A stretch of 17,270 nucleotides of DNA, counting the filler, from an uncultured virus (IMG/VR IMGVR_UViG_2061766007_002390) (lineage: Duplodnaviria > Heunggongvirae > Uroviricota > Caudoviricetes). It is 3 parts of one record of this genome, joined end to end, with 100 filler letters (N's around TTAATTAATTAA, not from the genome) between each part and the next. Parts side by side here need not be neighbours in the genome. Positions count along the whole stretch, not along the records: positions 421 to 16,350 come from IMGVR_UViG_2061766007_002390; 2 more parts are not named here. The stretch is one strand, 5' to 3'. Position 1 is the first letter of the stretch; each line of letters starts with the position of its first letter. Under the pieces are notes generated by a model. The model was given only the letters and a program-made list of their open reading frames with translations. It searched no databases and was not told the DNA's origin. A program made the translations under genes and the position numbers. Shown in pieces: positions 2,451 to 16,588 of the stretch.

Positions 2451-3253
2451 AAACTTTCTGTCAAGATATGAGTTGGGAATCTGACCATTACATATGAATA
2501 TCTTGTTGAGCATATCTATTATTCTCTGTGAAAACATATCAGCAAGATTGAACTCCATCTTATCAACATTATAGATATATCTCTTAATTAACTTCTTCTT
2601 GTCTTTCAACAGGAGAAGTTTATATGTTTTATCTATATCTTCATCATAAGTGAACTTGAAAGTGATGTATTTGAGTTTCTTGAACATCCTCAATGAACTG
2701 ATCATTATATTCATAATATCCTTATTCACATCCAGTTTCAATGAATCCTGATATGCCTGACAACAGATAAAGACATTCAGAGCATCAATTGTCGGAACAT
2801 CCTTCCATACATCATCTTCAGTCTTATACTGGGGAAGCATCAGTTCAAAAGTATTTTCAAGACCAAGAACACAAAAGTCATTCAAAGGACAGAACAGGGT
2901 AATGGTATGTACCTGATTTATCCTTGATAATACATCNNNNNNNNNNTCTTGGTAGTTCTGTATTGTTACTGATGGGAGCATCCCTTGGTATATTTGCATT
3001 GTCTCTTTTAGCATGGAGTAAGGTTGATGCAAAACCGGCAATGAATAATATCAAGATAGCNNNNNNNNNNTGGAACATCCTTCCACACATCATCTCCAGT
3101 CTTATACTGGGGGAGCATCAGTTCAAAAGTATTTTCAAGACCAAGAACACAAAAGTCATTCAAGGGACAGAACAGGGTAATGGTATGTACCTGATTTATC
3201 CTTGATAATACATCATCTCTATCTCCTTTTGTGTAATATTCGTTTTTATCCAT
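2451..3253 (-). CDS. Hypothetical phage protein, split into two overlapping allele fragments (3071-3253 and 2451-2936)
   Basis: MDKNEYYTKGDRDDVLSRINQVHTITLFCP...KT(G/E)DDVWKDVP is present in both pieces; the 2936 piece continues to ...PNSYLDRKF at the gap. Confidence 0.7.
2947..3060 (+). repeat. Misplaced 114-bp allele of the tape-measure gene segment 4951-5064
   Basis: Near-identical to 4951-5064 (LGSSVLLLMGASLGIFALSLLAWSKVDAKPAMNNIKI), with synonymous differences TCT/TCA and TTA/TTG, and flanked by 10-N gaps. Confidence 0.9.
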
Positions 3254-3260
3254 AAATATT
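3251..3260 (+). promoter_or_regulatory. Candidate late-promoter-like CATAAATATT upstream of the gp4-like gene
   Basis: An identical 10-mer is at 3819-3828 upstream of the tape-measure gene. It is one mismatch from the T4 late promoter TATAAATA. Confidence 0.35.
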
Positions 3261-3276
3261 TAATAATTATCTTTTG

Positions 3277-3290
3277 TAAAAATAACAAAA
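3277..3290 (-). promoter_or_regulatory. Candidate promoter motif TTTTGTTATTTTTA, copy 2 (13/14)
   Basis: Ends 23 nt upstream of the minus-strand ATG at 3253, a spacing similar to the 6724-6737 copy (22 nt). Confidence 0.45.
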
Positions 3291-3291
3291 T

Positions 3292-3783
3292 ATGACAGGA
3301 ATCAAAGACCTGAAACCCAGAAGAGGCGGACAATTCAAACAAGGTTATTATGAACCAGTCTATCCTCAAAAGTACAAGACCAATACAAAGCAGATTATTT
3401 ATAGGTCTTCATGGGAGTTTAAACTATGTAAATGGTTTGATCTCACACCAGAAGTATTGGAATGGGCATCAGAACCTGTATCAATAAAGTACTTCTTTAC
3501 CCTGGACAATAAAATGCACACTTATTATCCGGATTTCTATTTTGCCTTTCAGAAACCTGATGGTAAAATAGTGAAGTATATAGTTGAGGTAAAACCAACA
3601 GCACAACTTCAGAAACCTGAAGAACCTAAAAGAAAAACAGTCAATGCTGTAAAGAATTACAATTACTTGATGGAAGCATACATCAAGAATACTTGTAAGA
3701 GGCAATATGCAAAGAAATGGTGTTCTGAAAATGGTTATGTCTTTGTTTATGTCACAGAGAAGTCCAACTTGAATTTTTTATAA
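3292..3783 (+). CDS. T4 gp4-like head completion nuclease (TnsA-N-like PD-(D/E)XK fold)
   Basis: Has the characteristic gp4 pattern KQGYY.P..PQKY...IIYRSSWE...W.SE...Y...HTYYPDF...IVEVKP..Q..P and a C-terminal AKKWC..NG..F..VTE. Confidence 0.9.
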   Translation: MTGIKDLKPRRGGQFKQGYYEPVYPQKYKTNTKQIIYRSSWEFKLCKWFDLTPEVLEWASEPVSIKYFFTLDNKMHTYYPDFYFAFQKPDGKIVKYIVEVKPTAQLQKPEEPKRKTVNAVKNYNYLMEAYIKNTCKRQYAKKWCSENGYVFVYVTEKSNLNFL

Positions 3784-3818
3784 CTATTATTCTTATAATA
3801 TACAAACGGGCCATTTCT

Positions 3819-3828
3819 CATAAATATT
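3819..3828 (+). promoter_or_regulatory. Candidate late-promoter-like CATAAATATT upstream of the tape-measure-like gene
   Basis: Identical to 3251-3260 and located in the short intergenic gap before the ORF. Confidence 0.35.
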
Positions 3829-3850
3829 ATACATAAGATAATTGTCTTTA

Positions 3851-6721
3851 ATGCCAGCAGATAAGAGTTTAAAGGATCTGTCTAATGCAGTCTATAGGAT
3901 TGCAGAGAATTCACCAAAGATTCAGAAGGATGTCAAGGATATCAGGGATGCTGTATGTGGTACAGAAGGTATCCTTGAGTCTTTACATACCATTGGTGAA
4001 AAGATTGATGGATCCCAGAAAAAAGATGTTCTGTCAAGGACATCAGGTAGGAGGACAGATCCTGGCCTGAACACAAAGAAAATCCTCAGAAGTACAAATT
4101 CAATTACCACCCTCCTTAAGAAAATACTTGGTAGTGTTGATTCCATTTCATCAAAAGGTGGAAGAAACAGGAGATTACATGCAGAGAATTTCAGAAGGGA
4201 TGATGATAGAAGAATCAGGAATGTAAAAAGTCTTGAATCATTGTCAAAGTCTGTAGAAATTATAGAAAGACTCAAGAATATCAAACTCAAGGATTTCATC
4301 TTTGCAAAGAAAAAGATGAAAAATTTAGGTAAGATAATGGGAAGAGCCTTGTCTATATTCAGGAACTTCAAAAATCAAAAGGAGGTTGATGGTACAGTTG
4401 GGTTGGTTAACTCATCAATAGAGATAATGAATAAACTCAAAAAGGTATGGTTGATATCCAAACCAGCGCAGTGGGGTGAAAAGGCAATTGAAAAGGTATT
4501 ACTTGGAGGTAAAAAGAATCCAAATGGAGGTCTTCTTGGAATATTCAGGAAACTCAGTAAAAATGAAAGACACATAAAGAAAGGTAAGAAATCAATTAAT
4601 GATATTCTCAAATCATGTGGATCATTCCTGTTGACATCTATGATTCTTGTTGGTATTGCCGCTGTTTCAGTACCTGCTATGTTGGGAGCTCTTCTTATGA
4701 AGGGTGTTGTATGGTTACTTGTAGGAACATATAAATTCCTCAGTAAGTCTGCCAAATCTGTAACAAAGGGTTCTATTGTATTGCTGTTGATGAGTTCAAG
4801 TGTAATCACATTTGCTCTTGGACTTGGAGTTATGGCAATAGCAACAAAACATATGAGTTGGAAACAATTTGGAATGATGATGGCAAGTATTGGTGCCCTT
4901 GGTGCAACAATGGCAGTACTTGGTATTCCTGTTGTTGCTGCCCTTGCTGCCCTTGGTAGTTCAGTATTGTTACTGATGGGAGCATCCCTTGGTATATTTG
5001 CATTGTCTCTTTTGGCATGGAGTAAGGTTGATGCAAAACCGGCAATGAATAATATCAAGATAGCAGTCAATGGATTGAAGGAAGTATTTGGTCTTGATTC
5101 AAATAAAAATGAAGGTGAAAAGAAACCATTTCTCAAAAAACTTGCCGGAGGAGTTATGGATATTGCTATGGCAGTTCTTAACTTTGGTAAGATGTTCTTT
5201 ACAATGGGAACATTACTTCTTACTGGTGCTGCATTAGGATTGTTGTATAAAGGTATAAAACCTTGGTCAAATTTTGATGGAAGAAAGGCTGCTGGAAATA
5301 TCAGAACTGCCATCAATGCTTTGAAAGATGTATTTGGTCTTAATGAAGTAAAGGGAGATAATTCTGGTAAATTAAAAGGACTGGGTGGAGGTCTTCTTGA
5401 TCTGGGTATTTCAATATTACAGGGTGGAAAAGCATTTGTACAACTGGGTACAATTGTTATTGCAACAGCAATGATGGATATTGTAAGACTCACTATGATT
5501 CCCTGGATAAAAGATTTTGATTCCAAGAAAGCTGCAACAAATATGAAGACTGCCATTGATGCATTGAAAGATACCTTTGGTCTTAATGACAGGAATGGTC
5601 AGAGTATTGAAGCAAAAGCAAAGGGTGGATTGAGTGATTTGATAGGTCTTGCATCTTCAATATTCCAGATGGGTTCAACATTTGCCAGGATGGGTACTCT
5701 TGTGTTTGCAACAGCAATGATGGATGTTATAAGACTCACATTGATTCCTTGGAATAATTATGATCCAACACCCGCCATTGGTAATATGGAAATTGCTGTA
5801 AAGGGATTGTCTGAATGTTTTGGATTGAGAGAAAACAACCAGAGTGTAAAGGATAGTATTCTTGGTTCTATTTCAGATTTGTTTTCACTTGGTTCAGGTC
5901 TTCTTAAGATGGGTGACACATTTGTCAGGATGGGTACACTCCTTATTGCTACTGGAGCAATGAATAAGATTAAGGACAATCTTATGGTTTGGGAAAGTTA
6001 TAAACCTACCAATGCTATAACAAATATCAGAACCACTGTTGACAGTCTTCTTGATGTATTTGGTCTTACAGGAATTCAAAGAATGGAAGATGAGATTGAT
6101 AATGATACTTCCGGTAGATTTGGAAAGGTACTTGGAAAGATTGGTAATGCCCTTGCTAAACCATTTGAATTAGCAACCTCTTTAGCTGATACGGCTGTAG
6201 CTGCTGCTGAAGGAGGAAAGTCAATGTTGAAGATGTCAAGTATCCTTAATGTTACATCCACAATGGCAACCATAAAGGGTACACTTGAATCATGGGAAAC
6301 ATTTAATCCATCAAAGTCATTGGAACCTTTTAACAAGAGTATCCGTAGTGTTAATACATTGGATATTGAAAAGGCATCAATAATGATTGACCTCTTCAAG
6401 TCATTCACCAATATTAAGCAGAAACCATTTGACAAGTTTACAATGTCTGTAAATAAGTTCTCAGAATCTTGTGCTGAACTCATTGAAGCTCTTAACAACT
6501 TCAATGGTAGTAATATCAATAGTGTAGAAATCACAGATAAAAATAATGATACTGTTATTACAAGAACTGAAAATGTCAATATCAATAATCCAGAATCTTT
6601 GGCCCAGGCAATCGCAAAAGCAATCAAATCACTGCCTGTCAATGTTGAGACTAATATGTCTGATATCAGGTTGGTTGTTGATGGTGTATCAGGTAAAAAG
6701 GTTGTACTTTCATTAGAATAA
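3851..6721 (+). CDS. Tape-measure-like tail protein (~956 aa)
   Basis: Long Ala/Gly/Leu-rich helical protein with a basic N-terminal third, a hydrophobic stretch (about aa 260-395), then five ~81-aa repeats. It is adjacent to tail-chaperone-like genes. ATG at 3851 is preferred over TTG at 3842. Confidence 0.7.
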   Translation: MPADKSLKDLSNAVYRIAENSPKIQKDVKDIRDAVCGTEGILESLHTIGEKIDGSQKKDVLSRTSGRRTDPGLNTKKILRSTNSITTLLKKILGSVDSISSKGGRNRRLHAENFRRDDDRRIRNVKSLESLSKSVEIIERLKNIKLKDFIFAKKKMKNLGKIMGRALSIFRNFKNQKEVDGTVGLVNSSIEIMNKLKKVWLISKPAQWGEKAIEKVLLGGKKNPNGGLLGIFRKLSKNERHIKKGKKSINDILKSCGSFLLTSMILVGIAAVSVPAMLGALLMKGVVWLLVGTYKFLSKSAKSVTKGSIVLLLMSSSVITFALGLGVMAIATKHMSWKQFGMMMASIGALGATMAVLGIPVVAALAALGSSVLLLMGASLGIFALSLLAWSKVDAKPAMNNIKIAVNGLKEVFGLDSNKNEGEKKPFLKKLAGGVMDIAMAVLNFGKMFFTMGTLLLTGAALGLLYKGIKPWSNFDGRKAAGNIRTAINALKDVFGLNEVKGDNSGKLKGLGGGLLDLGISILQGGKAFVQLGTIVIATAMMDIVRLTMIPWIKDFDSKKAATNMKTAIDALKDTFGLNDRNGQSIEAKAKGGLSDLIGLASSIFQMGSTFARMGTLVFATAMMDVIRLTLIPWNNYDPTPAIGNMEIAVKGLSECFGLRENNQSVKDSILGSISDLFSLGSGLLKMGDTFVRMGTLLIATGAMNKIKDNLMVWESYKPTNAITNIRTTVDSLLDVFGLTGIQRMEDEIDNDTSGRFGKVLGKIGNALAKPFELATSLADTAVAAAEGGKSMLKMSSILNVTSTMATIKGTLESWETFNPSKSLEPFNKSIRSVNTLDIEKASIMIDLFKSFTNIKQKPFDKFTMSVNKFSESCAELIEALNNFNGSNINSVEITDKNNDTVITRTENVNINNPESLAQAIAKAIKSLPVNVETNMSDIRLVVDGVSGKKVVLSLE
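5030..6310 (+). repeat. Five degenerate ~80-82-aa tandem protein repeats in the tape-measure-like gene
   Basis: The F of the FGL motif starts at 5087, 5333, 5576, 5819 and 6059 (spacings 246, 243, 243, 240 nt). Consensus is A..N...A...L...FGL...G..F..MGTL..AT..M..I...L.PW..(F/Y)D. Confidence 0.85.
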
Positions 6722-6723
6722 TT

Positions 6724-6737
6724 TTTTGTTATATTTA
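6724..6737 (+). promoter_or_regulatory. Candidate promoter motif TTTTGTTATATTTA, copy 3
   Basis: Exact match to 1412-1425, ending 22 nt before the ATG at 6760. Confidence 0.5.
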
Positions 6738-6759
6738 GTTTATACTATATTTTATAATT

Positions 6760-7743
6760 ATGGGTAAAGAAAAAGACAATTATGAAGAGCAGGTCCGCAA
6801 AGAATTTGAAACTACTCAGGGACAATCAGAAGAAACCAATGTAGTAAAGGATCTTGGTAGGGTTCAACTCAATAAGGATATAGATGATTCAGACCTTGAT
6901 AGAATCAAGAGTTCTATGGATTATGTAAATATTCCTCTTGATACTCTTCCAAGTGGTGGTAGATTCTATCCGGAAGGAACACGAATTCTCATTCGTGCTG
7001 CAAGAGTTGGTGAAATCAGAGAGTTCTCAATAATCAATGAGGAAGATCCAAAGGACATCAGGGATAAGATGACCTACATTGTTTCACAGTGTACAAAGGT
7101 TTATTATGGAAATACCCCTGGTCATTACAAGGATATTCTTGAAGATGACAGGATTGTTCTTGTATTCAAGATAAGGGAACTTACCTTTACAGATGCAAGA
7201 CAGAGTATAAAGATTCCAGTACCTGAAGGTTCATGCCAGACTCCAGGATGTCATCCACAGGAGACTGTTGACTTTGATTCAAGTAAACTTGAGTTCCTAC
7301 AACCAAGTGAGAAACTTGAAAAGTACTATGACCCGGTTGAAAGATGTTACAACATTCAGACTAAGAGTTTTGGTACAATCAAATTATATCCTCCTACAAT
7401 TGGTGTGACATCAGTTATTGCTGACTGGATAAGGGAACAACAGAGAGAAGATAAAAAAATTGATGCAGCCCTTGCAGATATTCTCCCTTATATTATTAAG
7501 GATTGGAGGACATTCTCATCAAAGCAGGTATTCTCAAAGATTACTGAGATGGCAGGATGGCCAACAGAGAAGTTTGCATTGGTTCTCAGACTCAAGGATG
7601 AAATCACTGTTGGAATTGAGTTTGAAATAAAAGAAAGATGTGCTCAGTGCGGAGGTGAGTTGACTATTCCAGTTTCCTTTCCCGAAGGATTCAGATCCTT
7701 ATTTGTTCCGACAATTTCTGATCTCGGAGACGAACTTCTATGA
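6760..7743 (+). CDS. T4 gp26-like baseplate hub/tail assembly chaperone with Cys pairs
   Basis: LPSGGRFY...I.IR....E and DI...DR..L...IR..T motifs, Cys pairs CQTPGC and CAQC, and a C-terminal F.EGFRSLF; follows the tape-measure gene. Confidence 0.7.
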   Translation: MGKEKDNYEEQVRKEFETTQGQSEETNVVKDLGRVQLNKDIDDSDLDRIKSSMDYVNIPLDTLPSGGRFYPEGTRILIRAARVGEIREFSIINEEDPKDIRDKMTYIVSQCTKVYYGNTPGHYKDILEDDRIVLVFKIRELTFTDARQSIKIPVPEGSCQTPGCHPQETVDFDSSKLEFLQPSEKLEKYYDPVERCYNIQTKSFGTIKLYPPTIGVTSVIADWIREQQREDKKIDAALADILPYIIKDWRTFSSKQVFSKITEMAGWPTEKFALVLRLKDEITVGIEFEIKERCAQCGGELTIPVSFPEGFRSLFVPTISDLGDELL

Positions 7744-7990
7744 TAACATTGTCATCGCTATGGAAAAACTCCATATGCAGTGGGATGTTATAATGAGTTT
7801 GAATTTCTATGATTTCCAGAATATCCTTGACAGTTATACAAGGATACTTGAACAGAGAAAGGAAGAAGAGGAAGCAGAGATGAAGAAACAGGGTTATGAT
7901 GAAAAGAATATGAACCCTCAAAATATAATGAGTCAGGCAAAAAAGAATATGCCAAAACCTCCGGTCATCCAAACTCCTAAATTTAAATAA
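7703..7990 (+). CDS. Small gp51-like baseplate assembly ORF, possibly translated as a +1 frameshift extension of the upstream gene
   Basis: ISETNFYDNIVIAMEKLHMQWDVIMSLNFYDFQNILDSY...EEEE follows the pattern of the small ORF found after gp26 in T4-like phages (S.ENYY..NF.LM......EI..M..WE). The frame is open from 7664; the first ATG is at 7760. Confidence 0.6.
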   Translation: MFRQFLISETNFYDNIVIAMEKLHMQWDVIMSLNFYDFQNILDSYTRILEQRKEEEEAEMKKQGYDEKNMNPQNIMSQAKKNMPKPPVIQTPKFK

Positions 7991-8005
7991 CTGATCTGAT
8001 GGTAG

Positions 8006-8057
8006 AAACAATTTCGGGGTCCGCAAGACATAAGATTCTTTGGGGACCCCGTTGTTT
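8006..8057. terminator. GC-rich stem-loop between convergent operons (probable bidirectional terminator)
   Basis: AAACAA(8006-8011)/TTGTTT(8052-8057), CGGGGTCC(8015-8022)/GGACCCCG(8044-8051) and AAGA(8025-8028)/TCTT(8037-8040) pair up, between the stops at 7990 (+) and 8077 (-). Confidence 0.7.
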
Positions 8058-8076
8058 TATATGGTAAGTTCAGATG

Positions 8077-11000
8077 TTAATTATTATGTACATTACCAAG
8101 GTCTTTGGTGGTTTTTCTTTCTTTTTCTTCCTCACCTTCAACCTTACCTATATATTCCATAGTGTCAATATCAACAACCTTACTGTTCATAGCATTACCA
8201 AGATTCTTTGTAACAACTGTTGCCTTTTCCTTATCATTAAGGTATCCATATATATTACCTATATTCAAAGCATCTGCTGCTTTCTTTGGAGGAATACCTG
8301 TTGATGCAGATATACCTGTTACAATTTTTCTCAATGCATCATCCATTGCTGTCAGTTCCTGATTCTTTTGGGAAACAGAACCTAATGCAAAGTTATTGAC
8401 AACTGTTGTCTTATAGTGGTCATCAACAGCAACAGAAGTATCGTGTCTGATATAATCCCTGTAATCATTGTTATTTACATTACCCAGGACACTCTTATCA
8501 AACCACCTTCTGAAGTTTCCATCAATACCAACAGTATTTTTTCTGTCAGCCCAACTGCTATTACTCAAAGAATCTTTCAGACTCTGGTAGTTACTTATTT
8601 CACCAGGTTTGATTTCATTGAAATTCTTATTAAGTACATACTTCCTCAAGTCTTCAAATGGCAGGAAGTTGATTACACAGTTACCATAAGTAAATGTAAA
8701 TTTTGTTTTTCTTGCCTCATTATTTGGTAAATTTGAAACACTGTCAAACAATCCACCGGTTTCATTAGGAACAATCTCACAATCAAAGAACTTGAACTCA
8801 ATTGCTGATACATAGTTAAGGGCAAACTCTGCAATAGGAAACAAATCACCACTGTTCTCAACATTCGGGTTATTGATAGAGTTCTTGAAGTTCCTGATGT
8901 CATGTACAAAGATGGAACAATTGAATCTTCTCAAATTGATTGGAACCCTTTCTCTTCTGTATTGTCTGTCATATGCAGCATTGAAATACTTGTTAAACAT
9001 TGATGTGACCCTCAAATCAAGAAACTCCATACATTCAATTGAAATCTTGTCATCTCCGGAACCCATATAAGGATCCTTCACTTCAAAGTATTTGTTGTAT
9101 GCTTCTTCAAGACCGGTTATTGACTGGAACACATAAGGGGTTTCATTTATGAGTTTTTTCATATCCCTGGTGAATCCCAGCATATCATACACAGTCTGGG
9201 GAATTTCAAACAGTTCCCTGGTATTTCTTGTTTTGGGATCTACATAATCTGAAGAAGGAAGACTACTGTTTCTTATTACATTATTTACATCCCTGTTCTG
9301 ATAATCCTCAATTGTTGAAATATTATCTTTTGTGTTCTGTAAATCATTTATTCTATACTCTTTCTTTACATAATCATCATTTTTAAGATCTTCCTTTGCC
9401 TGAAGATAATTATAACATAAACTATTTGGTGCAGGATTGTTTTCAGAACCTATAGTACCATCATCATGTACACCAANNNNNNNNNNTTTCCTTTGCCTGG
9501 AGGTACTTATAACACAAACCATCATTATCTCCTGTACCTGGTGCAGGATTGTTTTCAGAACCTATAGTACCATCATCATGTACACCAAATATCCTCTTTT
9601 CCTCTTCTATCAATTGCTCTTTCTTTTTATTGATAGTATCATTTGCACTATTGGCAGATTTGATATTTTCTATATTTGCCTTTGTTACAAATGCAATCTT
9701 TTTGATATATGAATCCAGGTCATCCTTGTCTATCTCCTTTTTCAAACTCTTTTCTTCATTTTCTAAATCTTTCAATGAAGGGAGTTTAAATGTGATAGTG
9801 GTGGATTTTTTATTCACTGGCTTCTTTTCACCCGAAGGACTGTTGTACATAGAGTCTGTACCTTCCACCAAAGAAACAAATTCNNNNNNNNNNTCCCTTT
9901 TCTTTTTCTACTAATTGTTCATTCTTTTTATTGATAATATCATTTGCACTATTGGCAGATTTGATATTTTCTATATTTGCCTTTGTTACAAATGCAATCT
10001 TTTTGATATATGAATCCAGGTCATCTTTGTCTATCTCCTTTTTCAAACTCTTTTCTTCATTTTCTAAATCCTTCAATGAAGGGAGTTTAAATGTGATAGT
10101 GGTGGATTTTTTATTTACTGGTTTCTTTTCACCTGAAGGACTGTTGTACATAGAGTCTGTACCTTCCACCAAAGAAACAAATTCTGCCCAGACATTGTTT
10201 ATTGAATTCTTGACATCATTCAATACACTGTCATCAACTGTTGTTTTAAGTTTATCTGCATTACTTGAAAGTGTTGATTTGTAATCATTCAATGACTGTT
10301 TGATTTCTATTTTTTCAGATTCTATGTTGTTTTTCTCATTTTCAATCTCTTCTTTTAGTTTTTTATAATCTGAATAGGCAGTCATATAATCATTATATGT
10401 ATTGTTAAGTTGCTCTTGTTTTGCATCATGACCCGCTTTCAGTCCATTGAGTTCTTCCTTTTCCTTTTTAATCTGCATATCTATTGCAACCTCTTCAGAA
10501 CCAATCTTACATTTTACAACACGGTTTAGTTCTGGTTGTGGTGAGAATTGAGAGGTTTCACCTTTATAATCAGTAACAATCCTGGATGATTCAATACCAT
10601 TACTGATGAGAGTATCCCTTACCGTCTCAACTCTTCTTTTTGACAAGTCTATATTATGTTGACTGGTACCAACCTCACTTGCATAACCAGTGAGTTGTAT
10701 AGCACTGTCAGGTTGACTCTTCATTGATTCAACAAGTTCATTTATCTTTGTGTTCTCACTTGGTCTGATAAAATCCTCATCATTACCAAATAAAATATCC
10801 TGTTCATTTTTGAAAGAGTTCAGAATATCACTGTAATTATCAAGAATACTTCTGTCAGGAGTACCATTACCCAAATCTGTAACACCAAAATCATCTGTAT
10901 ATGTACCTATTGAAACCTTATCAACCATATAAATATAATCAGCAGCACCATAAAGAACATTGTCTATATAGTGTTTATCCCACAAACCATAACCAGGTCT

Positions 11001-11315
11001 CCTCCTGTTGTCAGTACCAAATGGATTCTTTGTATCTATTGTCAATATTTCATATGTACTTGGGTTGCCCAAAATATCAATGGCATTGACCTGATTAAGT
11101 TTATTCTCTATACTTTTTGCAATTTCTGTATTTGTTCCATCTGGTGATCTCAAACTGTCTGTAAATTCCTGTTCACAAAGAGAATAGAACAATGGAGAAT
11201 GAAGTTTATCAATATCAAAGGTAAATCCGGTAAATATCGGATCCTCAATACTGTTCCTTGAATTTTGACAATACTTGGTCAAAAGATTATGTGTATTCAA
11301 AAATTTTATATCCAT
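8077..11315 (-). CDS. Large virion protein (~940 aa reconstructed): N-terminal domain, OmpA_C-like domain, coiled coil, tail-tube-like (gp19/gp48/gp54-type) domain
   Basis: Three track ORFs overlap through duplicated segments at 10-N gaps (EFVSLVEG...; GVHDDGTIGSENNPAP) and so form one gene. The OmpA_C motif is at 10503-10805. The tube-like pattern is PYVFQSITGL...ISIECMEFLDLRV...FNCSIFV...FKFFDCEI...FTFTY; this call is an inference from the pattern. Confidence 0.65.
10503..10805 (-). other. OmpA C-terminal-like (peptidoglycan-binding fold) domain within the large virion protein
   Basis: ILFGNDEDFIRP...IQLTGYASEVGTSQHNIDLSKRRVETVRDTLISNGIESSRI...KGETSQF...NRVV matches the OmpA/MotB C-terminal signature (F..D; I.G.A...G...N..LS..R...V...L...GI...RI; NR.V). 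Confidence 0.85.
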
Positions 11316-11320
11316 AGTCT

Positions 11321-13424
11321 TTACTCTGTTACTATTATATTTTCTATGATGTTTTCTTCTTTATATTTATCTATNNNNNNNNNNGGCAAAGAATGATAAC
11401 ATAATTCAGTTTGAAGATGAAGGTATCATTGAGGCAGTGAATCCAAGACAGTGGAAAACCAAATGGCCTGAAGTTATTTACAACAGGGCATTGTCAGGAT
11501 GGTATGTAGTAACAGAGATTGAAATTGATTATGATTCCAATGACAATAATCTTAAGATGAATTTACTTCTTAACAGGATTGAGTACAAACCTTGTTTCAA
11601 GGATGAATATGTACTTGCAAAAAAGGCGATAGATAAATATAAAGAAGAAAACATCATAGAAAATATAATAGTAACAGANNNNNNNNNNTGCCTTTTTTGC
11701 AAGTACATATTCATCCTTGAAACAAGGTTTGTACTCGATCCTGTTAAGAAGTAAGTTCATCTTAAGATTATTGTCATTGGCATCATAATCAATTTCAATC
11801 TCTGTTACTACATACCATCCTGACAATGCCCTGTTGTAAATGACTTCAGGCCATTTGGTTTTCCACTGTCTTGGATTCACTGCCTCAATAATACCTTCAT
11901 CTTCAAACTGAATTATGTTGTCATTCTTTGCTTGTTTATATTTAACTGCATCCCCAGTGTCATAATCTTTAATATCTTCTTTTGATATTTCCTTCTGGGA
12001 ATACATATTCTTGTCAAATATATCAACCCATACCCTACTGAACTTTGTGACAGAAGGATTGTAGTTTTGAAGTTTTACCTTCAATCCACACATCTTCATA
12101 CACTTCATCTGGTATCTGTTATTCACCTCTGCAAAGTAATACTGCTTGAAAGTGTTGGATGTGTCAATATTTCCGAAGTTGTTGAATGACTCTACATTGG
12201 TCATATTGTCAACACTTGCCATATTACCATTAATATAGTTCTCATTTGTCATCTGCATCAGGTTGAGAGGTATATATGATTCCTGTGTAGGTTCATCAGG
12301 GATGGACAATATCTTCTGTGATATAACATCTCTCTTTAGATTATCAATAGGTCTTATGACAAAATCACAAGAACTGAACCCCCAGTTACCAACATTGGAA
12401 TCACAATATCTTGCATGTGTCTTGTATCCATCAGATAATGATGAACTGGTGTTTGTTATCTCCTCATATGATTCTATATAATTTGACCATCCATCAAACA
12501 GTTCATCATTTGTCAGGAAGTAATAACTCAACTTCTGATATTGATTGTTCAAAGGATCATCACCATCCTTGAGAGGTATCTGATTCTCTGTTGTTTTCTC
12601 ATCCTTGGTGGGATCAAATTCCGGAATATTATGAGGAGGATAACATTTGTATATCATAGCTGGAGTGTCTGTCTTACTTCCACCATGTGAAAGAAGTGAA
12701 TGACATTCCACAAAATTCAATACATTGTACTGGTCAATGAATGATGTGAAGAATGTGTTTGGTGAGTAACAGGCATGTGCTGTGATATCTTCCATAAAAT
12801 CAAAGTAAGTACCTGTCTCATTATTTCTCCAAGTCATATTATCCAGGGTGTTACTCTTTGTAAAGTTGGTGGCAAATCCAAGACCTGTCCATACTGCAAG
12901 ATTGAACAATGACTGTATTGCTGTACATTTACCTCCACACCATGCTTCCTTCCTGTATCCATAAGGTATGTTCAATTTACCATTCACCCTATATCTGAAT
13001 CCACTGTTTCCTACCTTTCTTATGTTTGTAAGTATGAAATCCTGACGGATTGGTTTATAATAGAGTTCATCACCCTGACCACCTATATGAACCTTGATGA
13101 TTGCACCAGGTTTAGGTACATTGGTTGACAACATTGAATTGGAACTGTCCATAAAATCAAATGACAAAACAGGAAGAAATCCTGTGTAGTCCAACTTGAA
13201 TGCACATATATCAACCTGNNNNNNNNNNNNNNNNNNNNNNNNNNNNNNNNNNNNNNNNNNNNNNNNNNNNNNNNNNNCTCATTAATTATGAACTCACTTA
13301 CACTTATGGCAGGTTCAACCAACTGGACTGAATTAATTTTGTCCCCAGTCAGTTCAACATACTTATTGTTATCATCTATTCCACCTATGGGAAATATTTT
13401 ATTATAAAGTGTATTTAAATCCAT
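11321..13424 (-). CDS. Baseplate hub-like protein (gp27-like), ~595 aa, interrupted by gaps and an inverted allele
   Basis: Starts at 13424 (MDLNTLYN) and continues after N13219-13277 (QVDICAFKLDYTGFLPVLSFDFMD...). The true end IDKYKEENIIENIIVTE* is at 11321-11374, 5 nt before the next ATG. The C-terminal LKVKL..NP.V....V.VDI and LSGWYVVTEIEIDY...M.LLL.R match the hub/late-control-D pattern. Confidence 0.55.
11385..11678 (+). repeat. Inverted allele of the 3' end of the hub-like gene, placed between two 10-N gaps
   Basis: Reverse complement of about 11689-11931 plus 11324-11374. The protein is the same except DYDSND versus DYDAND; the other differences seen are synonymous. Confidence 0.9.
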
Positions 13425-13428
13425 ATTC

Positions 13429-16066
13429 TTACTTTACTCTATATCTTTGACCATTGACAGTTACATAATCACCACTTCTGACATTTGTATTGGCAACAAA
13501 TACTTTCAGTGTTTGTCCATTTATATCTGTTACCTGAACAATAGAACCATTCTCTGTCCTCATAACATTATCAACAAAACTTGAATTGTCAGCAGCCTGA
13601 CCTTCAAAGCAGTCTTTCTCCAGGTCTTCGGTGTAATATGTGTACCAATAGAAAGCAGCATATGCACTGTCTATTTTTGTTAATATTGTTCCGACACGTT
13701 TCTGGTTCAACATATAGACACCACCTTTCTTCTTGTGACTCTTCTTTGATGCTTTCTTGATAATCTTACTCTTTATCCTTTTCAGAATATCACCAATAGG
13801 AAACAGAAATGGAGACAACATTGATGATGAATAATAAGTGTTTCCGGTATGATCCAGATTAGGATGGAAGAAATGCCAACCTATAAACTTGAGATCATTA
13901 TCCATTGGTTTTCCATCAACTAAATCAGATACTGTTGTTGTCTTTCCAATTTCTTTTATTATAGGAGATTTATAAGCCACAATAACATCTCCCCTTTCAT
14001 CAAGTTCATCAATCACTGCTTCAATTTTATCCCTGTCAAAATCACCGGATGCATCAGAAAGTTGTGAGATAAGATTTCTTGCACCCTTATCTGTTGAACT
14101 CACACCCTTCAACAAACCTATGGAATCTTTTATATATCCATCTTGTTCTTTTGTAATTGACTCATTTTCAAGATATTCTTCAAGTGCTTCCAAAGTATGT
14201 TCATATTCCTCAGTATCACTGAAATAAACAGGTGATAACATATTTGTAAGTTTTGCACTTGCCTTTTGGACATTGTCTCCAAATGCATCAATAATCTCCT
14301 GTATCAAATCCATCAACCATTTGAGACCAACTATATCCATAAGTTGTTTAATTATTTCCTTCAGGTTGTTTAAACCATTTATCATCAATCTTGCAATCTT
14401 ATTGATGTTGTTCATAATATCAATCACAAGGGTTATAATATCCTTGATGAATTTAAATATAGTCTTGATATCCATCCAGAAATCAGAAATCTTATATGCA
14501 GGATTTGGAACAACAGTACCAATATCCGCCGGCATAACCATCTTGAGTGATGAACATATCAATTGAGATCCCAAATTTTTACACAATTCCTTGATGTCAT
14601 TGAAGTCCTTATTGATTGCATTACAACAATCATCAATGAACATATCACAAGAACCACCATTCTGGAAAAATCCTTTTATCTCAGCAATACAGTCTTGATA
14701 TTGTTTCATCATTGACTGCCAGTCTGATTTAAGTGTGTTACTTCTGTAACCTGCCTCTTCCCAGAACCTATCCAGTTCTTCACCAATAATATCCTTGAGT
14801 TTTGATGTCTGCTTTGCTTTCTTGACCTTATTCCTATATTTCTTCACTTCCTTTATAGCAGATCTCATCTCCCTCTTTGACAATGTACCCTGGGCAGCCT
14901 TATTGTCAATGTCAGTCCTCTTCATATAGAGTCTGATATCCTCTCTCTGTTTTTTTATCTCCTCATCAAATTCCTTCAGGAATTCTTCATAATTTTCCGC
15001 ACTATAGTTCCTTTCATCTTCAGAAATTTCATCCAATTCTTCAAGTTCCCTATATGCTTCATTGGTCAAAGCATTGTATTGTTTGTACATATCTTCAGGA
15101 GTCATTTCAATATCACTCCTTATCTTATACAACATTGATTCAAAATCAATAGGAGGAAGTTTGTCCAGTCCAGTCCTTACAATAATAGACTGGGTAAGAA
15201 CACCTGTAAATGCAGCAACAACTTTACCAATACTGAAATTCTTTATTACAGTATCAAGAGACTCTGCAACAGCAGTTGTAATTTCTACAGTCTTTTTGTT
15301 CTCATCCTGATATGTGACTTCCTGAGATATTTTCTGGGCACCGGTTGAAACAGAACTCAAACCAGTAACATTCTTAAAACCACTGTCAACAATGTTGTTC
15401 AATTTTGCCATCTTTTCACGGAGTTCCTTAATGAGTGTCTCAACCCATTTGTTTGCATCCGAAAGACCACCATTGATAGTATCTGCAACACCCTGGACAG
15501 TACCCATTGCNNNNNNNNNNAGTCTCAACCCATTTGTTTGCATCTGAAAGACCACCATTGATAGTATCTGCAACACCCTGGACAGTACCCATTACTTGGT
15601 TCTTTTTATCTGTCACTTTCTGTTTTGCCCTGTCTGCTGAATTCAGTTGTTTGAATCCATCACCTGTCCATTCAAGTTCATCTTCACTTTCTTTTCTAAG
15701 AATAAGAGACACAGTGTCAGACAGTTCTGAAACCATATCAAGTGTGTTTTCTCCAAGACCCATTGCTTCATTGATAGTATCCTGGGAAACAGTATTTAAT
15801 CTATTGGTAATATTTGAAAGAGAACCAGTGATACTGTTCATCTGTGTCATAAGGTAGTTGGCAGGTATGTCTGCATAACTGTCCAAAAGTTTATCCATAT
15901 CATCAGACAGTTTCTGAACCAATGTTGACAGATAAACCACATCACCCACAACCCTTGTTACAAAATCTTTAGGTTTAGGCATAAGAGATATGAACTGCAT
16001 TGTCTGTGCAGTAACACACATTATCTTTATACTCTTTCTCATTCCAGAGTTAATAACATCTGCCAT
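13429..16066 (-). CDS. Large helical hypothetical protein (~850 aa reconstructed), probably structural
   Basis: Track ORFs 15440-16066 and 13429-15576 join through a 72-bp direct duplication (15437-15508 and 15522-15593) across a 10-N gap. It lies 2 nt after the upstream stop and 4 nt before the downstream start. Confidence 0.75.
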
Positions 16067-16450: not shown

Positions 16451-16588
16451 GATTCTTCCTTCATATGTCCTGGAATTATCCTCAACCTTCTTATGTCTGA
16501 AAATATTAAACCACNNNNNNNNNNAATCCTCCCCTCAAATGTCCTGGAATTATCCTCAACCTTCTTATGTCTGAAAATATTAAACCAC
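16451..16588 (-). repeat. Two 64-bp alleles (16451-16514, 16525-16588) of a short coding fragment
   Basis: The minus strand reads WFNIFRHKKVEDNSRTYEGRI versus WFNIFRHKKVEDNSRTFEGRI; the EGRI codons differ synonymously (GAA GGA AGA ATC versus GAG GGG AGG ATT). Confidence 0.7.

Follow-up and report, generated by a model that had tools for sequence, protein, structure and literature searches.

In phage lambda, the short tail assembly chaperone gpG and its low-level frameshift extension gpGT are encoded beside tail tube or tape measure genes, and G-T frameshifting of this type was described by Atkins et al. (2016) as widespread 'except T4' (PMC5009743). In T4, the hub assembly chaperones gp26 and gp51 (Leiman 2010) come from two genes (PMC3004832). 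Forward shifts that join chaperone ORFs are known in other gene families, both in the halovirus HSTV-2, which very likely shifts +1 (PMC5009743), and in the forward-annotated SEA-PHAGES cases (PMC5009743, PMC8211752, PMC10274946). The PRFect training set includes 350 cases with a forward motif, and no general +1 motif has been established (PMC10274946). In bacteria UUU_Ynn is prone to +1 shifting, with a predicted slip of P-site tRNA-Phe and no adjacent stop codon, in argI, Yersinia yopN-tyeA and ICEMlSym (the ICE with Trp-Gly codons), and influenza A PA-X (UCC_UUU_CGU) and related RNA-virus sites share the UUU_C core (PMC5009743). The literature already covers G/GT shifts, T4-like chaperone genes and the slippage of bacterial ribosomes at UUU_Y. 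Vladimirov, Gautam and Davidson (2022) reportedly found frameshifting in several T4-like groups. PRFect cites that study for T4-like chaperone genes (PMC10274946), and its text and supplements may bear on the novelty of the shift described below.

The locus analysed here, from an uncultured giant phage of the gut, lies in a window of 17,270 nucleotides (the whole stretch of DNA that was analysed) and comprises a gp26-like ORF, G, and an overlapping +1-frame ORF, T, which appears to be gp51-C-like at the level of its family. A first-pass annotation had proposed that a PA-X-like +1 shift joins the two. As in lambda, a short chaperone would receive its extension by frameshifting, but at UUU_Y by +1 instead of -1 on a heptamer; in addition, G has extra Cys-rich parts, about 20 codons are dual-coding, and the putative tape measure gene of this window lies upstream of G. 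The modelled G N-domain resembles the HK97 chaperone in fold, and G resembles, and T at family level appears to resemble, its counterpart in T4, which differs in having two genes. The tetranucleotide is that of the bacterial UUU_Ynn sites, but here it is found in a phage morphogenesis chaperone and with a conserved 5' GGAGG/hairpin. Compared with PA-X, UCC is unconserved, CGU is rare and the ribosome is bacterial, and the likeness is convergent, not homologous.

Materials and methods

Loci were drawn from 388 sources (the window and 387 loci), of which 376 were usable; seven with <250 nt downstream and five that were open-ended were excluded. They collapsed to 197 loci at 90% identity (including Lak, PAU, pT24, PTm1, MA9V-1 and MaF61), 89 at 70% and 30 at 50%. 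Kinship was handled by these identity clusters and not by a tree, no order of events is claimed, and locus counts overstate independence because the loci are related. The A3 subclade contributed no DNA loci, and its alignment was too divergent for the search patterns.

The window is a gapped scaffold with 17 runs of N and with duplicated or inverted segments (Table 1). The scaffold mixes strain variants, and several ORFs outside positions 3071-9476 are therefore artefactually split or repeated. The locus (6760-7990) lies inside that gap-free stretch, clear of the duplicated segments.

Results

Locus, composition and neighbouring genes

The sequence features on which the first-pass annotation was built were all correct, namely the ORF at 6760-7743, the +1 frame open from 7664, the 80-nt overlap, TCC TTT CCC GAA at 7675-7686, TTG at 7703 and the first ATG at 7760. 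Its CpG counts were reproduced (4 in 7683-7732 and 9 in 3842-6721), with 6 in 6760-7674; 50-nt intervals with 4 CpG numbered 3 of 16,057 gap-free ones, and all 3 began within 7683-7709, in this overlap only. CpG was strongly depleted across the window (73 CpG per 16,866 called bases; G+C 36%), and the codons TCG and CGG were absent from those of its long ORFs that were counted. The best public-run matches were bovine gut metagenomes, and close relatives sat on contigs of up to 412 kb.

The ORF that the first-pass annotation called a tape measure gene lies directly upstream of G. It had no significant Pfam or PHROG match, and the putative label is a weak Atlas lead (Table 1). The tail/baseplate region also contains, on the minus strand (9828-11315), a 495-aa ORF in which residues 176-260 match an OmpA-family peptidoglycan-binding domain (E 3e-13). 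The promoter and terminator scan returned output at chance level only.

Table 1. Positions of genes and signals in the window.
Feature	Position	Strand	Basis
T4 gp4-like head closure protein	3292..3783	+	phrog_218, E 1.9e-40; module context
Putative tape measure protein, 959 aa	3842..6721	+	Atlas lead T4_Tape_measure 0.90, 113 features
G (TAC-N), gp26-like tail assembly chaperone, 327 aa, 37.5 kDa (predicted)	6760..7743	+	Profiles, fold
GGAGGTGA, Shine-Dalgarno-like element, candidate regulator	7651..7658	+	22 nt 5' of site
TGA in +1 frame, 5' bound of the interval for the shift	7661..7663	+	+1 frame open 7664-7990
UUU_C, predicted +1 slip site, Phe307	7678..7681	+	TTT in 155/155 Phe codons, C next in 154/155
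Dual-coding overlap	7678..7743	+	G ends in the 0 frame and T begins, with its conserved F-S-L-F-Q-type motif, in the +1 frame
CCC_G, possible second site for the slip (same product); CCC is a rare Pro codon in the A site	7681..7684	+	Clade conservation
T (TAC-C extension), gp51-C-like, 102 aa	7682..7990	+	Homologue profiles; helical model, pLDDT 83
Duplicated/inverted segments	525-1277, 2794-3214, 9592-10184, 11386-11931, 15437-15593, 16452-16588		94-99% identity

The upstream ORF

The 0 frame of G terminates at TGA 7741. G matched phrog_36717 (1e-30) and, weakly, the baseplate hub profile phrog_150 (0.003), and it reached PF12322 T4_baseplate with E=0.0025 and 18 bits, under the 24.5 cut-off; PF12322 is precomputed on many close homologues of G. 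The AlphaFold model (pLDDT 77) matched T4-like baseplate hub subunits in BFVD (from E 4.6e-10). Homologue profiles and BFVD structure matches together place G in the gp26 family (PF12322/phrog_150), which bears out the earlier gp26-like call. Matches were found in 31 phage records, all at <60% identity (Lak 15, uncultured megaphages 6, Tenacibaculum pT24/PTm1/PTm5 5, PAU 2, MA9V 2 and MaF61 1).

G had no match in the PDB, either with Foldseek or when the PDB sequences were searched by profile. Against 48,161 solved chains, the N-domain of the model (residues 43-155) ranked 2OB9, the HK97 TAC, first (Z 5.8, rmsd 4.6, 86 aligned), 3FGX second (Z 5.6) and 3KLU fifth (Z 4.5), the latter two of which we take to be TAC-fold proteins. 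The Z-scores are middling, and the modelled domain appears to fold most like tail assembly chaperones.

Phase of the downstream frame

The +1 frame ran on without a stop for 40 codons or more beyond the end of G in 196/197 loci, compared with 2/197 for frame 0 and 7/197 for the +2 frame, and the +1 phase noted in the first-pass annotation is thus conserved. The lone exception was Lak-B1, in which TAG codes for Gln (this raises ORF coverage from 0.52 to 0.90). In two further loci, L189 and L195, the +1 frame meets a TAG 3' of the site, and reading on requires TAG=Gln, which their flanks support. A -1 heptamer shift of the kind in T4-like gp26/gp51 (T_TTT_TTC) was rejected, the +2 (= -1) frame being open in so few loci.

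Recoding of TAG to Gln was also apparent more widely: the Lak or Lak-like loci L013, L151, L167, L168, L189, L195 and L010 look recoded (ORF coverage up by 0.14-0.42), and TAG is used inside the +1 extension by some Lak or Lak-like loci.

The slip site

At the Phe307 column TTC did not occur at all (TTT 155, TTC 0), compared with 66% use of TTT in the same genes, and the next base was C in 154/155 against an 11% background. Arg after the site was CGN in 19/19, against 73% AGR elsewhere. PAU has UUU_CCC at the site and MaF61 has UUU_CGA. Seven other conserved Phe columns had TTT at frequencies from 28/194 to 97/135, without such a bias. With UUU_U included, an in-frame UUU_Y was conserved at the homologous place, inside the open overlap, in 192/197 loci (154 UUU_C, 38 UUU_U; 1.2% per-codon background), 37 of the 38 UUU_U loci being admitted by a one-codon-offset rule that was set after those loci had been seen; in most loci beyond the 155 the sequence was ATT TTT TTG, displaced by one codon from the aligned column. 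The in-frame TTT_C of the first-pass annotation therefore recurs across the family as TTT_C or TTT_T, and with coarser clustering UUU_Y was kept in 84/89 (70%) and 26/30 (50% identity). Replacement of C by U in the 38 loci would still permit re-pairing of tRNA-Phe. A +1 stop stood two codons 5' of the site in 58/192 loci, and the interval in which a shift could occur is narrow.

A protein-only check (142 sequences, 50%-cluster library) found the conserved Phe in 131/142, followed by P, R, Q, H or L in 127/131, against 20% after other Phe. The codons of these five residues share only a first-position C, so the check agrees with UUU_C.

Five loci were without the site. In three of them (MA9V-1, PTm1 and L168) TTT_C is found at another place within the open overlap, and in L168 it lies 3 codons after a new +1 stop, which excludes the usual position. 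The open overlaps of L007 and L019 had no UUU_Y and held only CUU_U (prfB-like) or CCC_A; these two loci may slip +1 on some other codon. UUU_C was apparently relocated within the overlap in L168 (+8 codons), L015 (+8) and L018 (-6).

The PA-X-like cassette UCC_UUU_CGU did not survive comparison, the family motif being UUU_Y: UCC preceded UUU in a minority of the window clade (5/22), CGT followed it in 4/154 loci of the family, and the base before UUU was C in 47/84 loci. For the window, a second candidate site that lies seven codons further 3', (C/A)TT_TTC, was rejected; the window reads TTA TTT GTT there, and F-S in the +1 frame explains the pattern. A GGA-to-GGA hop like that of T4 gene 60 was also rejected, the +1 frame of 7664-7743 having no GGA.

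An identical product would result if the slip came one codon later, with peptidyl-tRNA-Pro passing from CCC to CCG. CCC was present in 22/22 clade loci and in 69/76 Pro codons at the column (4.5% elsewhere; 7/127 Pro codons in the long ORFs of the window that were counted), and Listeria phages shift +1 on CCC (PMC5009743). However, UUU was invariant with or without CCC, 85/154 UUU_C loci had CAA, CGN, CTN, CAG or others in its place, and CCC can alternatively be read as a slow A-site codon or as Pro wanted in both frames. Slippage of tRNA-Pro is accordingly improbable, and tRNA-Phe is probably the tRNA that slips in this phage.

The +1-frame ORF and the dual-coding overlap

The predicted fusion, GT, is 409 aa long (47.6 kDa). 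Among the 67 T relatives aligned (of 70 candidates, three Lak-like ones being omitted), 17 matched phrog_634 'baseplate hub assembly catalyst' at E<=0.05, the best with 1.2e-6. The T of the window itself had no match to the phrog_634/gp51 profile, and the profile matches behind a gp51-like call come from relatives. The nearest Atlas clusters with a family were Gp51_C (0.91), only 30% of the members of which carry Gp51_C, and P2 GpE (0.88). T had no Pfam match and chance matches only with blastn, its model gave nothing significant with Foldseek against BFVD (no match at E<=0.001), and the T and G profiles had no relation to each other. Residues F10, S11 and F13 of the T alignment were each at least 90% conserved, and the conserved part of T started about 7 codons 3' of the slip site. 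In L010, L013 and L014 (Lak and a 735-kb phage), the T part beyond the G stop had insertions about 15-25 residues long.

Synonymous variation, which would be reduced under the dual coding suspected in the first-pass annotation, did decrease: in the window clade (22 loci), the same-codon fraction rose from 0.54 in the body of the gene to 1.0 at the site and stood at 0.84 beyond it, and four other clades repeated the pattern.

T could instead be a separate gene, translated without fusion from a start of its own (TTG 7703, ATG 7760 or a non-canonical one) coupled to the G stop. T4 itself has two genes (PMC3004832, PMC10274946), T is annotated as a separate small hypothetical gene, with varying starts, in PAU, MA9V-1, pT24, MaF61 and PTm1, and TTG (Leu) recurs at +14 codons in 84/192 loci. 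Against this, the conserved independent start that the first-pass annotation had named as contrary evidence was not found, TTG occurring at the 7703 position in 21/192 loci and ATG at the 7760 position in 27/192. In 86/192 loci ATG, GTG and TTG were all missing as far as 8 codons after the site, by which point the conserved motif is under way, and the first ATGs were spread over 44 positions and absent in 10 loci. The invariant UUU_Y would also be left unexplained. As in G/GT pairs, the second ORF keeps to one other frame where it overlaps the end of the first and has no conserved start, and two separate genes are very unlikely.

The +1 frame could also be entered by a -2 ribosomal slip, as in the -2 chaperone frameshift of Mu, or by transcriptional slippage, and both would be possible in the 35/192 loci with a run of 7 T at the site. 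The run is 3 T in the window and in 146/192 loci, tRNA-Phe could re-pair after a -2 slip in just 3/154 UUU_C loci, and contigs from two RNA libraries (7036-7997 and 7314-7746), which hide rare variants and indels and show neither expression level nor proof of transcription, span the site ungapped. Both routes are very unlikely. An assembly error or a decaying fused gene, to which the gapped scaffold with its duplicated segments might point, can be taken as already refuted by conservation, the phase being the same in 196/197 loci including cultured phages, the contigs of independent runs having no indel at the site, and the region being gap-free.

Flanking signals

GGAGG was present in 22/22 window-clade loci and in 49/84 family loci (16.5 expected from synonymous shuffling), mostly 17, 22 or 25 nt 5' of UUU. 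Anti-SD pairing over codons -11 to -4 averaged -9.4, compared with -7.2 when shuffled (sd 0.17; 84 loci), and six control windows had no comparable excess. No Shine-Dalgarno (SD) sequence was found at the G-gene starts in 83 examined, as expected in Bacteroidia (PMC10798248). Folding of the GGAGG stretch was -7.9 compared with -5.1 in synonymous shuffles (sd 0.15), and one of three control windows had a smaller excess. In several clades the GGAGG region falls in the loop of a hairpin; in one of them, with 35 loci, cells with two-sided changes were 16 vs 5.5 shuffled but such pairs only 3 vs 2.4, the structure having been derived from the same sequences used to score it. The hairpin was weak in the clade of the window, and the UUU_U clades were mostly without GGAGG.

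The upstream constraint is real, and the GGAGG/hairpin is a candidate regulator of the +1 shift. The SD spacings on record are 3 nt in +1 and 9-14 nt in -1 shifting (PMC5009743), and a 5' hairpin is able to stimulate +1 shifting on 70S ribosomes (PMC6321510). SD-stimulated +1 shifting of the prfB type was rejected, GGAGG being 17-25 nt away and the A-site codon a sense codon and not a stop. On the 3' side, no conserved structure was found over 84 loci (mean z 0.25 and -0.23). A window hairpin at 7685-7700 was rejected as a stimulator: it was not family-wide, and the clade consensus was weak with no compensatory change.

The wider gp26-like family

Among seven distant gp26-like loci, none annotated as joined, a +1 overlap with in-frame TTT_C near the 3' end was found in 5/7 (BRock, LuckySocke and GiJojo, three close Streptomyces relatives, GXN1 and LR756508.1) and a -1 overlap in 2/7 (T TTT TTC in Pseudomonas phage Paride and G GGG GAG in Bacillus phage BCD7). 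The unannotated +1 UUU_C overlaps are at L389:2735, L390:1679, L391:1664, L394:1938 and in L393 (the Streptomyces phages, Streptococcus GXN1 and an uncultured 484-kb phage), and the unannotated -1 extensions after the gp26-like gene are at L388:3849 and L392:1523 (Paride and BCD7). The gene order differed with the genome: the putative tape measure gene, a weak label, is directly 5' of G in the window, BCD7 has tube, G and tape measure, and PAU, MA9V-1, pT24 and PTm1 have a sheath gene a few genes 5' of G.

Discussion

The conserved phase and site, the 5' bound, the missing conserved start and the chaperone-like fold argue that a +1 shift within UUU_CCC_G makes the G-T fusion, with a probability of roughly 0.88 on this comparative evidence. 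Most ribosomes would stay in the 0 frame as far as TGA 7741 and release G, 327 aa. A minority would pause with peptidyl-tRNA-Phe on UUU and the rare, C-starting CCC in the A site; tRNA-Phe would then re-pair from UUU to UUC, and reading would go on in the +1 frame to 7990, giving GT at a low rate. By analogy with lambda gpG/gpGT and T4 gp26/gp51, G would coat the tape measure protein, and the T part would link that protein to the tail tube or to hub assembly.

The first-pass annotation, whose short and long chaperones made by a +1 shift at UUU_C are supported here by the phase (196/197), UUU_Y (192/197) and the unconserved starts, had called this an unusual mechanism for a tail module. A +1 UUU_C shift does appear to operate in a tail module, but it is less unusual than stated because bacterial UUU_Y slippage is already known and other +1 chaperone shifts of tailed viruses have been reported or annotated. 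In the literature covered, which took in few subscription journals, no +1 UUU_Y shift was found in gp26-like genes or in Lak, PAU, pT24 or MA9V phages, and the available parts of PMC8211752 and PMC12484599 had nothing on this gp26-like jumbo-phage family.

Specialists would probably be surprised most by the upstream GGAGG/hairpin. That it acts as a +1 regulator of an undescribed kind, and that the superfamily has in addition switched its mode of shifting, is put forward together as a tentative and rather doubtful proposal. If true, the regulator would have a spacing that fits neither the 3-nt (+1) nor the 9-14-nt (-1) rule and would work in phages of Bacteroidota, hosts that as a rule make no use of Shine-Dalgarno sequences, and the gp26/gp51 superfamily would have switched among two genes, -1 and +1, with the slip site moved. 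The element raises the question of anti-SD use during elongation in Bacteroidia (PMC10798248).

The locus would represent a forward-slipping version of the well-known phage chaperone frameshift, kept across a large family of giant phages. Nearly 200 naturally varying versions of a +1 site at a sense codon, read by bacterial ribosomes and found in cultured phages too, would become available for comparison; such sites have no established general motif (PMC10274946). In records of the family the pair is now either unannotated or entered as two hypothetical genes whose starts are arbitrary, and the reading proposed here would name the missing tail chaperone pair of jumbo phages and megaphages, among them Lak, PAU, pT24, PTm1, MA9V, MaF61 and many uncultured ones.
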